IMG/VR virus record: IMGVR_UViG_2706795722_000001
Location: 12,965 to 76,964 of that record
Length of the DNA stretch: 64,000 nucleotides
From: a virus
Lineage: Duplodnaviria; Caudoviricetes
Reading direction: 5' to 3' (one strand)
Below the pieces are notes generated by a model. That model ran no database searches. It was not told the DNA's origin and saw only the letters and a list, made by a program, of their open reading frames with translations. Positions 54,772 through 62,011 of the stretch are shown here, one piece after another (the first letter of the stretch is position 1; every line of letters begins with the position of its first letter). A program made the position numbers and the translations under genes.

Positions 54772-55130
54772 GCACCGGCCTTTGCGGCGGCAACCATGAC
54801 CATGTTGCGGTAGAACTCGGGCACCTCGCGCCGGATGTATCGGGCCGGGTCTAGCGAACGCTTAGCCTCGGCAAGGTATGCCTCCACGCGGGGCGTGTGG
54901 TCGATCTCCACGCGATTCTTGCGAACCGGCGTGTTGCCGTGGTGGATCACGCCCGAAACTCGTCCGGTGTGCGCCGCGATCTTCTCACGCCGCGCCTTGC
55001 GCTGGTCGGCGTCGAGGTCCGCCCAGTTGTCGGGGTTGAATGCCAGTTCACGGTTGAGCTGGATCTGCTGGTATTCGGTGTGATGGATCACGGGTACGGT
55101 ACTGTAGACGCGCTTGCGTGCCTTGGACAT
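54768..55130 (-). CDS. Basic hypothetical protein (120 aa)
   Basis: GAAAGGG RBS after the promoter cassette. Confidence 0.7.
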   Translation of the reverse strand: MSKARKRVYSTVPVIHHTEYQQIQLNRELAFNPDNWADLDADQRKARREKIAAHTGRVSGVIHHGNTPVRKNRVEIDHTPRVEAYLAEAKRSLDPARYIRREVPEFYRNMVMVAAAKAGA

Positions 55131-55163
55131 AACCACGGCCCTTTCGGTGTCGGTTTTGGATCT

Positions 55164-55230
55164 GGTACTAGCGTACCATGACCGCCTACCTACCGCAACT
55201 TTCGTTAGGTAGGCGATCAAAACACGCTAG
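55164..55230 (-). repeat. Hairpin-plus-promoter cassette, copy 1
   Basis: 20-nt GGTACTAGCGTACCATGACC identical to 55600-55619. TTGCGG-17-TACGCT, 8-bp hairpin CCTACCTA/TAGGTAGG, and GATCAAAACaCGCTAG at the upstream stop. Confidence 0.8.
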
Positions 55231-55559
55231 ATATTGCGACCGATGAAATCCATGAAGTGACCCATGATCTCATCCACGTCGAGAATGTGGTCGAGTTCCA
55301 CGGTCTGGGAATCCGGACCGTCGCCGAACCGATCGAGGGAGGTGTTCATCACCATCACGCACGGCTCGGGGAATGTGAGCCGCCACGCGATACCGGTAGC
55401 CGACTTGTTCTCGTAGACCAACGAGTCGCCGGTGAAGGTGATCTCGTCAATCATCGTTTCCACGGTGGCCGCGCGGTAGTCGAGAGTTTCGGCCCCCATG
55501 TGTGTCATGGTTTCGGCGATGATTGCCGCGCGCAATGTCTTGAATTGCGAGTTGTTCAT
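55227..55559 (-). CDS. Hypothetical protein (110 aa)
   Basis: Flanked by the two cassettes. GAAAG RBS. Confidence 0.7.
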   Translation of the reverse strand: MNNSQFKTLRAAIIAETMTHMGAETLDYRAATVETMIDEITFTGDSLVYENKSATGIAWRLTFPEPCVMVMNTSLDRFGDGPDSQTVELDHILDVDEIMGHFMDFIGRNI

Positions 55560-55599
55560 TTGTCACATCTTTCGATTGTGTTGTCACGGTTACCCGTGC

Positions 55600-55658
55600 G
55601 GTACTAGCGTACCATGACCACGGCAAGTTTGTCAACTTGCCGGATCAAAACGCGCTAG
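55600..55658 (-). repeat. Hairpin-plus-promoter cassette, copy 2
   Basis: TTGACA-18-TACGCT-AGTACC. 9-bp hairpin CGGCAAGTT/AACTTGCCG over the -35, and GATCAAAACgCGCTAG at the upstream stop. Confidence 0.8.
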
Positions 55659-55831
55659 GACTGCCACGCCCTACGGAATCCGTAGACGAAATCTTCGTGT
55701 TGCGTAGCACCGAGTTCGTACCAATCCGGTTCGATTCCCATTTTGCGCATACGGTGGGCAAGATTTTCACCCGCCACCATTTGCGTTGCGTCACGAAGTC
55801 CGGAAAGTCCATCTACCGTAGAACGGTACAT
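55655..55831 (-). CDS. Small hypothetical protein (58 aa, not in track)
   Basis: GAAAGGG RBS. MYRSTVDGLSGLRDATQMVAGENLAHRMRKMGIEPDWYELGATQHEDFVYGFRRAWQS*. Confidence 0.65.
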   Translation of the reverse strand: MYRSTVDGLSGLRDATQMVAGENLAHRMRKMGIEPDWYELGATQHEDFVYGFRRAWQS

Positions 55832-55871
55832 TGGTCAACCCTTTCGGTGTTGTATTCGATTGTGTGGTACT

Positions 55872-55900
55872 AGTCTATCACGTTCGATCTAGGTTGTCAA
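55872..55900 (-). promoter_or_regulatory. Sigma-A promoter (early battery)
   Basis: TTGACA-17-TAGACT followed by AGTACC. Confidence 0.75.
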
Positions 55901-55933
55901 CCCGGACCCGGTGCGATTTTCCGTTGTGGTACT

Positions 55934-55962
55934 AGTCTAGCGTAGATCGGGAACTTTGTCAA
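55934..55962 (-). promoter_or_regulatory. Sigma-A promoter (early battery)
   Basis: TTGACA-17-TAGACT followed by AGTACC. Confidence 0.75.
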
Positions 55963-56065
55963 ACCGTTTCGCGCGCCGTGCGGAAACTTTGGTTCGGCTA
56001 ACAATCTAGGGTACTAGGACTAGGTCCGTTCGCGTAGTTCGTGTTCCGTTTTTCGATCTAGGACT

Positions 56066-56094
56066 AGTTAACCATAGATCGGGTACTAGGTCAA
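56066..56094 (-). promoter_or_regulatory. Possible sigma-A promoter (early battery)
   Basis: TTGACC-17-(TGG)TTAACT. Confidence 0.5.
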
Positions 56095-56289
56095 ATCGTG
56101 TCGGGTGATCTTCCCAAGATATGGGACGCGAAATCTAGGCCCGCTAGAACGAACGCTACGGGGCTCGCGTAGGTCTCGGCCTAGTTGTACCGGCGATGCG
56201 GGAACGTTCGGCTACGGGCGATCTAGGCGGGTCTATGTGGAAAGTGCTACGGGGGCGGGTGGCGCGGTGCGCGACTGGATGCCTAGTGA

Positions 56290-56930
56290 AACTAAAGGTT
56301 TTTCTTTGGTTGCATAGTGCAAGCTTTTCTTTAGCTAAAGATAATGATGCATGTGAATGTATAAGCTTAGCTAAGAAAACGGGGTCTAGAAAAAGTCTTT
56401 AGTTTCGGGCACTAAAGATATGGGGGTAGATAGCAAGCGAAACTAAAGACTTATTTTAGGCACGGTAATTACTGTATGTAATAAAGATATTAGATAGCAT
56501 AGTTATACAGGGTAATTGCTCTGTATAATGATATAGTATGGGTAAGTAGTTAGCGAGTGTAATAGATATAGTATGGGTAAGTATATAGCATGAGTAATGA
56601 TAGTAGTATGGATAGCTTATTAGTAAGTGTAATGATGTAGTATGTATGAGTAATGATATACTTAGTATGTGTAATGATATATACTTAGCTATGAGTACTA
56701 ATGATATGTGTATGTATATCTTTAGTATGAGTATCTAAGTATATTGTTATAGTAAGTAATGAGCATAAGTATCAATAGTGTTTCATGTGAAACATACTTA
56801 GTTATGAGTGCTAATGGTATCTAGAAATAATACTTAGTTATGAGTGCTAACGATTCCGGCCAGTCGATAGGCGCGCTAATGAGCGGGGCTAAAAGAAAAG
56901 TCTTTAGTGGCACTAGCTAAAGATATGATT
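56290..56930. repeat. AT-rich, C-poor low-complexity region with internal direct repeats, bracketed by ~43-nt degenerate direct repeats
   Basis: GATATAGTATGGGTAAGTA x2 (56530, 56565), ATACTTAGTTATGAGTGCTAA x2 (56794, 56830), flanking units at 56380-56422 and 56884-56927. Confidence 0.85.
56779..56794. promoter_or_regulatory. parS: Host-chromosome-type parS-like site TGTTTCATGTGAAACA
   Basis: 15/16 match to the conserved bacterial parS palindrome TGTTTCACGTGAAACA. Confidence 0.6.
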
Positions 56931-56939
56931 AGAGAGCGA

Positions 56940-56960
56940 AAGCATCCGTGATGGATGCTT
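56940..56960 (-). terminator. Intrinsic terminator after the 48-aa gene
   Basis: AAGCATCC-GTGAT-GGATGCTT hairpin with a TTTT tract on the minus strand. Confidence 0.65.
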
Positions 56961-56967
56961 CGCGTGG

Positions 56968-57114
56968 CTACTTAGCGTGCTTACCGATGTAGGTCGGGTC
57001 GAAGTAGCGCGGGGACGAGTAGTTCATCTGAGTAATGAGCTTGGTCATGTCCGGATCGTTGGTGTAGCGGCCTGTGAGCTCTACGGTGGTCGTGGTGGCT
57101 TCGTTGTTGTTCAT
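56968..57114 (-). CDS. Leaderless small protein (48 aa, not in track)
   Basis: MNNNEATTTTVELTGRYTNDPDMTKLITQMNYSSPRYFDPTYIGKHAK*. GC3-biased island within AT-rich DNA. ATG at the predicted +1. Confidence 0.7.
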   Translation of the reverse strand: MNNNEATTTTVELTGRYTNDPDMTKLITQMNYSSPRYFDPTYIGKHAK

Positions 57115-57120
57115 AGTTCT

Positions 57121-57149
57121 AGTATAGCAAGTCGTCGGCGAAAGTACAA
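57121..57149 (-). promoter_or_regulatory. Sigma-A promoter for a leaderless transcript
   Basis: TTGTAC-17-TATACT, with 6 nt to the ATG. Confidence 0.7.
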
Positions 57150-57642
57150 CTTTTTAGGTAACAAGTCGATAACGATCTTGTTAGTTGGGTAAAGTGCGCA
57201 AAAAGTCGTAGTGTGGACAACGAATGATTTGACTTTGGAAAGTTCATCTTTTGGCAACGGATCTTTTCGACTGCGGAGTAGCAACACTGAAAGTTGCACT
57301 CACTAACGACTTTTAAGTAGTACGACTAAGCAATGCTTTGCGAAATCAAATCTCGTGTGTGTCTTGACTTTGGGATGTAACTTTGGTAAGGGGGCGGGGC
57401 GATGCGGAGCTCTCTGCTCCGTTGTCAGCACACACAAAATTTTCAGAATACTCTCGAACTAGTACCACAAGTGATATGTACATTGCGAGCATTGTAGTTA
57501 GTGCCGTCCATGTTGTTCCTAGTACCACCCAGGAAAGGATGTAGACTTGATTATTAAGGTTTCTTCGAACAGTGTTCTAATTATAGTTGTTTATAGTATT
57601 ATTATAGTATTTATACCCTTCTACCTGCATATATACCTATAC

Positions 57643-57920
57643 CGTAACCGCGTAACCACTATAACCACACCCCGCACCACCAAACCCGCCTTGTGTATTC
57701 AGGTCTTGCCTCCGCCACCGAGTGTCACTCCCTGGCCGGGGTCATCGAGTCTAATATTCAGCCCCGTCGACTACCCCTAAGTCCCGCCACTTATGTAAGT
57801 ACATCTCGCGTTTTTCCACCGAACGTGGTTACGTGGTTACGATACCCCCAAAAACCACGTTTGACCTGCGGTTTTCGGGGGTTACGAAGGGGTGGTTACG
57901 AGCGGTTACGGGTGGTTACG
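57643..57920. repeat. Iteron-like GGTTACG array
   Basis: GGTTACG at 57827, 57835, 57880, 57894, 57904 and 57914. Inverted CGTAACC at 57643 and 57651. Confidence 0.8.
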
Positions 57921-58061
57921 CCCGGCGCGTTTCCCCAGGATAGCGAGGTTGGGAATACTGGTTTTCGTTCGTATGTTCGATTCTATATTCGTACGCATTG
58001 CCTGGCTCAAAAGAAAACTATAACCATAAATTATTTTTGGTTATGGTTTTCTTGCAAAAGG

Positions 58062-58093
58062 AAGGCCCGGCTAGTTAGTACCAGCCGGGCCTT
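58062..58093 (-). terminator. Terminator of the primase/helicase operon
   Basis: AAGGCCCGGCT-10 nt-AGCCGGGCCTT, followed by CCTTTT on the minus strand. Confidence 0.7.
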
Positions 58094-58115
58094 GTCCTCT
58101 TCGAACGGTGCATAC

Positions 58116-58577
58116 TTACATGTTCGATGTATTGCCGTCGAAACGCACGATCTCCTTGGACCTGTTCAGCACTCGCGGGTACGTCAAACCCTTGCCCGTG
58201 AAGATCTCTTCGATCCTGTGAAACGTCTTGCTGTCGTCGCTGATCAGGTGCGCCAGTAGTGAACCCAATCCCGCAGCTGCCCCGGCGGTCTCGGCGATTG
58301 CGACAGCGGTTGCCATCTTATCGTCTCGATTCTGTATTATTCTGATCCGCACGCTCAGACTCTCGTAGAGCTCGCCGTAGTAGGTCGCCCCCATTTCCAG
58401 CAACGAGAGCATCGACTTGATCCCCGCCGCGAGCTCTTCCTCGCGCGCCGAGGCCATCGACTCCTGGATTAGGCCGTGCGCCTTCGCCAAGAGCTCATAG
58501 CTCTCGCTGTCGCCCGTGGGGATGCTCTCCTGGCAGGCGGCGACCAACCAGTCGAGCGCTTCGTTAGCGTTCTGCAT
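58116..58577 (-). CDS. Hypothetical helical protein (153 aa)
   Basis: GGAGG RBS. Tiling. Confidence 0.7.
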   Translation of the reverse strand: MQNANEALDWLVAACQESIPTGDSESYELLAKAHGLIQESMASAREEELAAGIKSMLSLLEMGATYYGELYESLSVRIRIIQNRDDKMATAVAIAETAGAAAGLGSLLAHLISDDSKTFHRIEEIFTGKGLTYPRVLNRSKEIVRFDGNTSNM

Positions 58578-59445: not shown

Positions 59446-59720
59446 GCTGCGTTACCTGCTTTCTTGTTTGTCTTCAGGGACAGTTGGTGATCTTTGAGTC
59501 GCATCTCGAGGTATGCATCCTTGATCTCATTCGCCGAGGTTCCGCCGTCGGCACGCTTGCGGTCTCGGAGGTTCTTTGTGCACAAGGGTCCGCGACAGCC
59601 CTTGTTGTAGCCAATCGGCCTGCCGTGGTGATGGGCCGGAAAGGCGGGGTCGCACAGCTCGGCGTCGACTTCTTTGCCAAGGTCGGCGAGCATGGCGTTC
59701 ATGATCTCTTCGATGTTCAT
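59442..59720 (-). CDS. Small protein with HG...GY..GCR...C metal-binding motif (92 aa)
   Basis: HHGRPIGYNKGCRGPLC. ATGA overlaps. Confidence 0.7.
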   Translation of the reverse strand: MNIEEIMNAMLADLGKEVDAELCDPAFPAHHHGRPIGYNKGCRGPLCTKNLRDRKRADGGTSANEIKDAYLEMRLKDHQLSLKTNKKAGNAA

Positions 59721-62011
59721 TTTGCACTCCTTTCGTTCTCTCGTGCAATCGCTTCCTTGAGATGTGGCGAGCTGCTAGACAGCAAGAAGCGCTGCGACTT
59801 GGGGCCGCGAGCCCCCGAGTTGGGATCGACGACGATCTCGCCACTTTCGATAAGGCGCTCGAGCTTCTTGCGGAAGTTGTCCTTATCCCAGCCCTTGCGA
59901 ACCCCGTGCGAGCGCAACCAAATCTGGCCCATCGTGGCGAACCCCTTGCCCTGGTAGGCTATCGCGCCAGCAGCGGCTCGCAGGATAGCCTCCTCCATCT
60001 CGTTGCCCTCTGTGCTCACCGTCTTGGTGTTGGTCATCGTGGCAGTGCGATCGAGGTACTCCATAAGCCATTCCGCGGCGCGCAGGTCCTCGGGGATGAT
60101 CTGATCGCGGTCGCTGTTCAATGCGAATAGCAGACAGTACTTACGGAACTTGAGGTCAAAGCGGCTCTTCACATCTGAGGTTGCCTTGAGCAGCTGCATC
60201 TTGAGGTTGATGCGGTCGAACTCTTTCTCGCACTCGTCAGCGAAGTGGATGTGAACCAGCTCGCGCTTTTCCTGATCCCCACCATTGAGGTACTTGGTGG
60301 CCAGGTCGCCGTACAGCTCGCGCGCGTAGGTAAGATTAACGGACTTGCGTCGGAACGTGTGCTCCTCGACAATCCTGTTGCCGGTGACAATATCAAACCT
60401 GGCCACAAAGCCGTTGTTGATGTTGCCACCGCCGAGAACCTTACTCATGACCGAAGGCTGAGTGCCCATCGCGATGATCGCGTTGGGGTTGATCGCAGAC
60501 AACTCGCCGGATGTCATCGAGCCGGTGGAGACTTTGTGATTGACTCGACCGGAGTTCTCGAGCTTCTGAATCGTGGTAAGCAACGAAGAACCCTTGATCG
60601 CTGACTTGCTCATGATCTGGGCAAGCTCGTCAATCTCCATGAGCGCGGTGACGTCCCGAATCTTCTGTGGACCAGATTCCGCCTTGTGCGTCGAGAGCTC
60701 GTTGATCAGGTATTCGCCCGAGCCGACGTCGGAGATCTGCTTGGCGCCCGAATGAAGCTGATAGGCGCCCGCGCTCGCTGATAGAACTCGCCACCTGAAG
60801 GCGTCGTGTTCCATGATCTCGTTGACGTACTCGAACACCTGTGACTTGCCGATACCCGATCCGGCGACGTACATGCAAGAAATCGACGGCTTGAAGATAG
60901 AACCTGCGACCGAACCCCGAACATACGGCCCCGCCGACACAGCGAGAAGCTGAAGTGCACGAAAGAGCATGAACTCCTTGGGGTACGCGACGTGCTTCGT
61001 GGCCCACATGAACTCGTACAGCGGAGTGTCCTTGGGGAGGTACTCGAAGATCTTGTCGATCTCGGGGAGAACCTCCTCGTCTCCGTCGAGAGGAGCCTCA
61101 TCCTCAACGTCAGGTCGAATCTTCGTAACAGATGCCATGCTGGTCGGCTCTGCTGCCAGACTGGTCGGTTTCGGCTCACTGGTCGGCTCAACCGCCTTCG
61201 CCGCTTCCTTCTTGATCGGCGTAGGCTTGACTGCGGGCTGTTCTGTGAGAGCGTTGGGCTTGTCCACTCCGAAGTCTTTGGTGCTGAACTTGGTGGGGCC
61301 GATGCTGGGGAGGTCTTCGTCGCCGTCGGCGTAGTCCATGCCGAGCGGCTTGGTCGCAGGAGTTTCCCTATGACTCTCCTCGTCGTCGTCCGAGCTGTCC
61401 TCGCTCGGGAGCTTGCCGAACTCGGCTTCGAAGTCGGCAATCTCCTGCTTCTTCTTTGCGGGAGACTTGCCGACGTAGCCGAGCTTGTCGCGCTCGAACG
61501 TCCAGCCGCAGAACTTCTCGAGGGTCAGCTGCTTGGCCTGTGCGAAGTCCTTGCCCTTAGCGGCCTTGCCGAAGGTCATTCCAGCGGCAGCGGCGACCAT
61601 GTCGATAATGCCGCCGCCGCTGTCGCACTGACCATAGCAGACCCAGGTGTTGGTCTTGATGTTGATACAGGCGGCTTCGGACTCGGTGTTGTGGTGGTTC
61701 GCGGACGGACAGAAGATCAAGAGCTCGCCCTTGCCGCCGCTCTTGAGCTTTGGGCGGTTGTCGCCGGTCAGCTTGCGATACACCTGCGAGATCTGGAGCT
61801 TCTTGAGTGCCGAGTCCTCCTCGTTCTGCTGCTCAGCCCGCCGGTCAGCGTACGAGTGCTTCTCGAACAAGTCGGGAGCAGCTTCGAGAAACTCCTCGGG
61901 GACTTGAGTCTCCTCGGCAGACTGAAGCTGCTCCTTCGTCGTCTCGGCTTGCTCCGACTTCTCGATGTCCGCCTGAATCTTGGCGAGCATGTCGTTCCAC
62001 TGGCCACTCAT
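59717..62011 (-). CDS. Replicative helicase-like ATPase (DUF3987/YfjI-like) with N-terminal CHC2-type Zn finger (764 aa)
   Basis: CPSANHH...WVCYGQC..GG.IID Zn-binding domain, AGSGIGKS (Walker A), MEIDEL (Walker B), GTQP and GFVARF motifs. Confidence 0.75.
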   Translation of the reverse strand: MSGQWNDMLAKIQADIEKSEQAETTKEQLQSAEETQVPEEFLEAAPDLFEKHSYADRRAEQQNEEDSALKKLQISQVYRKLTGDNRPKLKSGGKGELLIFCPSANHHNTESEAACINIKTNTWVCYGQCDSGGGIIDMVAAAAGMTFGKAAKGKDFAQAKQLTLEKFCGWTFERDKLGYVGKSPAKKKQEIADFEAEFGKLPSEDSSDDDEESHRETPATKPLGMDYADGDEDLPSIGPTKFSTKDFGVDKPNALTEQPAVKPTPIKKEAAKAVEPTSEPKPTSLAAEPTSMASVTKIRPDVEDEAPLDGDEEVLPEIDKIFEYLPKDTPLYEFMWATKHVAYPKEFMLFRALQLLAVSAGPYVRGSVAGSIFKPSISCMYVAGSGIGKSQVFEYVNEIMEHDAFRWRVLSASAGAYQLHSGAKQISDVGSGEYLINELSTHKAESGPQKIRDVTALMEIDELAQIMSKSAIKGSSLLTTIQKLENSGRVNHKVSTGSMTSGELSAINPNAIIAMGTQPSVMSKVLGGGNINNGFVARFDIVTGNRIVEEHTFRRKSVNLTYARELYGDLATKYLNGGDQEKRELVHIHFADECEKEFDRINLKMQLLKATSDVKSRFDLKFRKYCLLFALNSDRDQIIPEDLRAAEWLMEYLDRTATMTNTKTVSTEGNEMEEAILRAAAGAIAYQGKGFATMGQIWLRSHGVRKGWDKDNFRKKLERLIESGEIVVDPNSGARGPKSQRFLLSSSSPHLKEAIARENERSAK

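Follow-up and report, generated by a model that had tools for sequence, protein, structure and literature searches.

Among the closest described systems is that of the virulent phage phi29, which carries five parS sites of the host type and whose genome is moved into the prespore with the help of host Spo0J (Meijer et al. 2005, as summarised in PMC2731898). The Bacillus phages phi29 and Nf are virulent, have no ParB of their own and carry the parS of the host chromosome, and in all of this they resemble the phage studied here (PMC2731898). A first-pass annotation of this phage had proposed an undescribed system, a claim that fails because phi29 already uses host Spo0J with its five host-type sites (PMC2731898). 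The likeness between the two phages has limits. While phi29 is a protein-primed podophage with five sites, the present phage is a terminal-repeat siphophage with a single, imperfect one, and its binding of ParB is putative. To our knowledge, neither Tsukamurella nor Gordonia forms endospores, so the benefit in phi29, entrapment of its genome in the spore, is not transferable to these non-sporulating hosts.

A second comparison is with the chromosomal centromeres of the hosts themselves. ParB is general in Actinobacteria and the parS consensus holds there, with 10 sites in C. glutamicum and 3 in M. smegmatis (PMC7022226). All ten C. glutamicum sites are identical, none having the central change of the site described below; one of them is enough for ParB loading over about 32 kb, and sites with three or more mismatches are not bound (PMC7083940). 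The parS clusters of these Mycobacteriales chromosomes and the site described below are of the identical 16-bp palindrome type, but the chromosomal sites are clustered near oriC together with cognate parAB, whereas ours is a lone site on a phage. Finally, phage-plasmids and extrachromosomal prophages, such as P1 and the cluster A mycobacteriophages (RedRock, for instance), also carry a centromere-like site on the phage genome, but they are temperate and have their own ParA and ParB and their own parS repeats (PMC7157519), none of which was found in the present phage.

A single parS-like site in a C-poor region

We analysed a stretch of 64,000 nucleotides (hereafter the window) from a 76,964-bp IMG/VR virus record, in which one 16-mer matches the 16-bp palindromic parS consensus TGTTNCACGTGAAACA at 15 of 16 positions:

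56779..56794, no strand assigned: parS-like 16-mer TGTTTCATGTGAAACA

The 16-mer differs from TGTTTCACGTGAAACA by a single mismatch in the central CpG, C8 to T, with a perfect right half-site and one change in the left. It is the sole copy in the whole virus record, and no second match with two or fewer mismatches was found in the window, which sets it apart from the several sites of phi29. The first-pass annotation had reported a one-mismatch parS at this place inside an AT-rich core, and both the site and its setting are borne out, with a GC content of 0.41 and a GC skew of +0.32 across 56001-57000.

From base composition, the expected number of matches with at most one mismatch is 3.0e-4 for a whole window; it falls to 2.8e-5 for the non-coding DNA at 55830-57700 and to 3e-6 for the AT-rich core. 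The earlier estimate of 7e-4 was of the right order, although the accompanying statement that AT-richness would raise the chance was wrong: the core contains 27 C in 391 nt, and this scarcity makes a chance match there less likely, not more. A per-window p-value alone is nevertheless not decisive, because about 250,000 windows were scanned and about 75 chance matches with at most one mismatch are expected overall. An intrinsic terminator at the 16-mer was rejected, the stem being a weak 6-bp AT stem with no T-run and no terminator being predicted there.

A virulent-type siphophage without its own partition genes

Nucleotide matches to the region came only from the Tsukamurella phages TIN3 and TIN4 (Tinduovirus), at ~70% identity. 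We gathered further relatives using one marker gene of the window:

59717..62011, minus strand: primase/helicase (DUF3987; phrog_5311)

Its product shares 73% amino-acid identity with that of TIN3 and 33-55% with those of ~90 Gordonia phages of cluster CS, whose genera are Montyvirus, Getseptimavirus, Woesvirus and Demosthenesvirus. Domain searches in six frames of the whole genome found no ParB_N, HTH_ParB, AAA_31, CbiA, Phage_integrase or Resolvase, so that the absence of parA, parB and integrase first noticed in the window extends to the entire genome. ParB_N was not found in five relatives either, and the annotation of TIN3 (50 kb listed) contains no lysogeny genes. We classify the phage as a virulent-type, cluster-CS-like siphophage without parA, parB or integrase of its own. 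A phage-encoded ParB was rejected as the partner of the 16-mer, given that neither ParB_N nor HTH_ParB occurs in any frame, and the six frames hold neither the ParA ATPase nor the ParB of a self-encoded phage or plasmid parABS system.

An iteron core close to the predicted genome end

Minus-strand genes flank the ~1.1 kb of non-coding DNA (55830-56960) that contain the 16-mer, which has the following surroundings:

55872..55962, minus strand: two tandem promoter-like sites TTGACA-17-TAGACT, leftward, facing the early genes
56396..56418, no strand assigned: left bracket palindrome TCTTTAG-N9-CTAAAGA, with a counterpart in TIN3
56470..56860, no strand assigned: AT-rich iteron core, strongly C-depleted on the plus strand, delimited by composition and repeats
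56526..56644, plus strand: tandem iteron array, period 35, 3.4 copies
56794..56854, plus strand: two 25-nt direct repeats of ATACTTAGTTATGAGTGCTAA type, conserved in TIN3
56901..56923, no strand assigned: right bracket palindrome TCTTTAG-N9-CTAAAGA, identical in TIN3
56968..57114, minus strand: small 48-aa ORF, situated past the iteron core and before the predicted terminal repeat
57240..57414, plus strand: predicted direct terminal repeat, by homology to the left end of John316 and the right end of Berries

The left bracket palindrome belongs to a set of CTAAAG-type palindromes, and repeats of 35, 21 and 25 bp make up the iterons of the core. The first of the two 25-nt repeats begins at the final base of the 16-mer, and a third copy of this ATACTTAGTTATGAGTGCTAA-type repeat is found at 56681-56705. 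Contamination by host DNA during assembly was rejected, because the 16-mer is embedded in phage-specific repeats common to TIN3; no trace of host-like flanking DNA was seen around it.

The mark of an iteron origin, an AT-rich stretch with tandem direct repeats whose position is kept among relatives, is present. We regard the core as a candidate origin or terminal recognition region: since only 0.5-0.9 kb separate it from the predicted end of the terminal repeat, a part in recognising that repeat during packaging would suit it just as well. Across three genera, tandem arrays occupy the same place, 0.8-1 kb from the right genome end; their periods are 35 bp in Berries (L247 6037-6234) and 19/38 bp in John316 (L005 6282-6371), and their sequences are unrelated. 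Same-place arrays with unrelated sequences suggest lineage-specific binding proteins that co-evolve with them. Searches with Pfam and PHROGs detected no DNA-binding domain in ten neighbouring ORFs, and Rfam returned nothing credible in 55000-58500. The small ORF at 56968..57114 had no family match; at the corresponding position TIN3 has Orf97.

The two promoter-like sites individually span 55962-55934 and 55900-55872, and the repeated GGTACTAG motif corresponds to their -10 and start region. The same promoter family, TTGACA-17-TAGACT followed by AGTACCACA, also occurs at about 55600-55640. Inverted copies of GGTACTAG are located at 57458 and 57519, beyond the predicted terminal repeat, and have no good -35; because of these copies in opposite orientation, the shared motif may also double as an operator.

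Measured terminal repeats in cluster CS phages are 184-191 bp long (PMC5559632), and the left boundary of the repeat predicted here is approximate, having been placed by analogy with these relatives. For the right boundary (...GGAGCTCTC, at 57414) the support is good: the window contains a homologue of the final 45 nt of the direct terminal repeat found in John316 and Berries, and the counterpart of the Berries record end (...GAAGCTCTC) ends at 57414. Read across this boundary, positions 57370-57423 run from GGGATGTAACTTTGGTAAGGG to GGAGCTCTC and continue with TGCTCCGTT, and are homologous to the end of the terminal repeat in Gordonia phages of cluster CS. From this homology it follows that the deposited genome is probably a permuted representation, with the true physical right end probably at about 57414. 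By the same homology, ~620 bp would separate the 16-mer from the right physical end of virion DNA.

The variant spelling in host chromosomes and viral contigs

We next considered whether the variant is a real spelling of parS. The presumed host family was taken as the GTDB family of a Rhodococcus MAG with a GC-flanked parS pattern, and comprised 401 genomes. Sites with at most one mismatch to parS were present in 377 of these genomes, compared with three genomes, once each, for the reversed control. The exact variant occurred at 27 sites in 26 of the 401 genomes; its reversed control had 0, and about 0.1 would be expected by chance at 65% GC. In six of eight host loci examined, other parS or parS-like sites lay no more than 1.5 kb from the variant, and one of these loci has it among three perfect parS. 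One host genome carries two variant copies, 2.5 kb apart, as the only parS-like sites found. Occurrence within host parS clusters, and as the sole parS-like sites of one genome, suggests that the change is tolerated. The variant spelling thus appears to be a natural member of chromosomal parS clusters, and the description of the site as host-type in the first-pass annotation is upheld by its presence in 26 of 401 genomes, usually among parS, against none for the control.

Viral contigs gave a similar picture. At least 119 IMG/VR contigs contained a perfect parS, compared with 2 for its reversed control, and at least 119 contained the window variant, compared with 13 for its reversed control (at least ninefold). 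Because of this excess, most occurrences of the exact 16-mer on viral contigs are not due to chance, although many of them will be phage-plasmids or host flanks. For example, the IMG/VR loci L026, L065, L011 and L025 have 4-5 perfect parS within 0.8-3 kb, and these contigs are probably phage-plasmids or partition regions. Our literature search for binding data on a single central mismatch found no publication printing either spelling of the central variant. In one host-family chromosome (L385 1491-1526), the variant forms the core of a 36-bp perfect palindrome, with GGTTCGGGAA to the left of the 16-mer and TTCCCGAACC to its right, showing that extended palindromes around parS are not peculiar to phages.

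Replacement of the site in sister phages

The first-pass annotation had proposed to check whether the 16-mer is conserved in related phages while its flanks diverge, and had named its absence from relatives as an outcome that would speak against the proposal. We observed the reverse: the 16-mer is missing in TIN3 and TIN4, whose flanks are 95-100% identical. No parS with three or fewer mismatches was found in the homologous 8.4 kb of TIN3, and none with two or fewer in the whole TIN3 and TIN4 genomes. Pairwise alignment of the window with TIN3 resolved the difference into two adjoining segments:

56703..56762, no strand assigned: 60-nt block, the same in TIN3 and the window, that adjoins the variable segment on its left
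56763..56794, no strand assigned: lineage-specific 32-nt segment ending with the 16-mer

The identical block, in a region that is only ~70% identical as a whole, includes a degenerate TCTTTAG-N9-CTAAGTA palindrome and is a strongly constrained core of the iteron region. In place of the 32-nt segment, TIN3 has 53 nt of TAATGATAT-type iterons, and to the right of the replaced segment identity resumes at ~95%. The alignment therefore shows the 16-mer to be a discrete, lineage-specific difference within an otherwise strongly constrained core.

We extended the search to 21 related genomes from about ten lineages (~1.6 Mb), to which a profile search had contributed six more cluster-CS genomes. In 18 of the 21 (TIN3, TIN4 and 16 further genomes), no parS with two or fewer mismatches was found; the only carriers were the Woes-type Gordonia phages Berries and Woes, and Bianmat. 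For closer IMG/VR relatives, searches with conserved flank patterns and the primase/helicase retrieved TIN4 only. Absence from the nearest relatives means that the 16-mer is no conserved part of an origin or terminal region, and its absence from TIN3, TIN4 and the 16 further relatives that it is dispensable for the lytic cycle.

Perfect, paired sites in Woes-type phages

Two perfect parS 16-mers are present in each of the cluster CS3 phages Berries and Woes, and the chance expectation for perfect sites across the ~1.6 Mb of related genomes is about 3e-4. The sites are at 70769 and 71191 in Berries (PP978880.1; L247 4270-4285 and 4692-4707) and at 71019 and 71440 in Woes (G004), and 17 further records are 99% identical over the two-parS stretch of the Woes type. 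Each pair forms the cores of a 34-bp and a 28-bp perfect palindrome with differing outer arms; these palindromes lie in an intergenic stop-hairpin-leader cassette that is repeated among small early genes. In John316 and in the sister phages Nimi13 and Lahirium, GC-rich hairpins of unrelated sequence occupy the corresponding slot, from which we conclude that the slot conserves a hairpin and not parS. In Bianmat, one of the two slots reads TGTTTCACATGAAACA, the reverse complement of the window variant, and its central transition falls at a slot where Berries and Woes have a perfect site.

Given the two perfect sites in Woes and Berries, host parS turns up in this phage group more than once, at non-homologous places and more often than chance would allow. 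Woes-type phages and the window phage belong to the same wider group (primase/helicase 43-45% identical), share a host family, lack a phage ParB and have their sites in the right arm of the genome, in its early or terminal part. The Woes-type sites, however, are perfect, paired, placed between early genes and the cores of longer palindromes, whereas the window site is single, imperfect, located in the iteron core and not positionally homologous to them. The perfect paired sites are clearer cases than the window site, and they, along with the conserved terminal control region, are the more informative objects.

Alternative explanations

Coincidence is the alternative that survives best, and although unlikely it has to be taken seriously: the 16-mer would have arisen through neutral turnover of AT-rich iterons and palindromes, with ParB either not binding in vivo or binding without consequence. 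TIN3 and TIN4 have ordinary TAATGATAT iterons instead, with the flanks kept; the region is rich in inverted repeats (41 near-perfect 16-nt palindromes in the window), and the local words GTGAAAC-TAAAG (56286) and CATGTGAA (56351) recur nearby. The absence of half-site enrichment (8 observed versus 5.8 expected) also fits this account, as do the roughly 75 one-mismatch matches due by chance over ~250,000 windows and the 13 IMG/VR contigs that contain even the reversed control of the variant. These arguments are countered by the local expectation, which drops to about 3e-5 over the non-coding stretch and to about 3e-6 over the C-poor core, and by the at least six changes and an indel that would be needed to reach the 16-mer from the TIN3 sequence. 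Independent recurrence of parS in a related lineage and the at least ninefold excess of the variant over its control in viral contigs likewise speak against coincidence.

We consider it improbable that the site is a decaying relic, that is, a once-perfect host parS acquired through recombination with DNA of a host or of a phage and now drifting without function. C-to-T at CpG is the commonest kind of decay, and this, with the identical change away from a perfect site in Bianmat, at the slot that is perfect in Berries and Woes, is why the window site may be a decaying copy; that it is single and lacking in the nearest relatives agrees with such an origin. On the other hand, the variant persists in host parS clusters and provides, in two copies, the only parS-like sites of one host genome, and the flanks of the 16-mer bear no trace of host-like DNA.

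That the 16-mer belongs to the phage's own machinery, as a site for a phage protein, a structural element of the origin or terminus or a weak promoter whose likeness to parS is incidental, seems quite improbable: it does lie among iterons and bracket palindromes conserved in TIN3 and is overlapped by a leftward promoter-like TTCACA-18-TATGCT (56791-56762), but the genome holds no second copy, TIN3 and TIN4 lack it despite common neighbouring genes, no DNA-binding domain was detected in the flanking small ORFs, and the promoter match is only 9/12 in AT-rich DNA where the region count (7) is not above that of shuffles (mean 4.4, s.d. 2.3).

A candidate landing site for host ParB

We put at about even the chance that the 16-mer is an accessory, lineage-specific landing site for host ParB. 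A real ParB site is favoured by the low chance expectation, above all in non-coding DNA, by the occurrence of the same spelling in the host family and its excess on viral contigs, by the absence of ParB from the phage, by the reappearance of parS in the phage group and by the phi29 precedent. A selected function is made less probable by the single imperfect copy, its clean replacement in sister phages, a mismatch of the commonest decay type, the non-sporulating hosts and the nearby genome end. The window site is by itself weak evidence, as it is the only one, deviates from the consensus and does not occur in the sister phages.

As a landing site for host ParB, the 16-mer would be a host-type parS, a natural variant of the centromere of Mycobacteriales such as Tsukamurella, Gordonia and Rhodococcus, set in what is probably the terminal control region, non-coding, of a siphophage of virulent type and close to cluster CS. 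Because the phage has no ParB, host chromosomal ParB is the likeliest binder. It would nucleate on the 16-mer and load CTP-dependent sliding clamps onto the adjoining phage DNA, which comprises the iteron core and, ~0.8 kb leftward, the early promoters, as well as the terminal repeat ~0.6 kb in the other direction. ParB-CTP clamps slide off free DNA ends, and with the predicted end only ~620 bp away they would be lost from the phage DNA unless it is circular or concatemeric; loading would accordingly be expected once one of these forms has been reached. The site would act as a lineage-specific accessory, outside the conserved origin or packaging machinery. By analogy with phi29 parS and Spo0J, the likely benefit would be that phage genomes are tied to the host segregation apparatus when lysis is delayed, as in carrier or quiescent cells.

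A broader proposition, which we find rather unlikely as it stands, is that virulent actinophages of the CS type, namely the Tinduovirus-like window phage and the Woes-type phages, independently acquired host parS in non-sporulating mycolata and use it for a ParB-dependent carrier state or for coating of the terminal and early region. In a carrier state, host ParB and ParA, and by way of them the polar DivIVA-anchored origin complex or SMC, would carry non-lysing genomes to daughter cells; alternatively, ParB may coat the terminal and early region and shield or silence it. Either, if true, would carry the principle known from phi29 over to another host biology, with another benefit.

If host ParB does load on the 16-mer, the phage would provide an actinobacterial, non-sporulating case beside phi29, the single studied virulent borrower of a host centromere system. 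The benefit would then be something other than entrapment in a spore, for example the inheritance of phage DNA in carrier cells of the foam-forming mycolata of wastewater, and such inheritance would be relevant to the biocontrol of these bacteria by phages.
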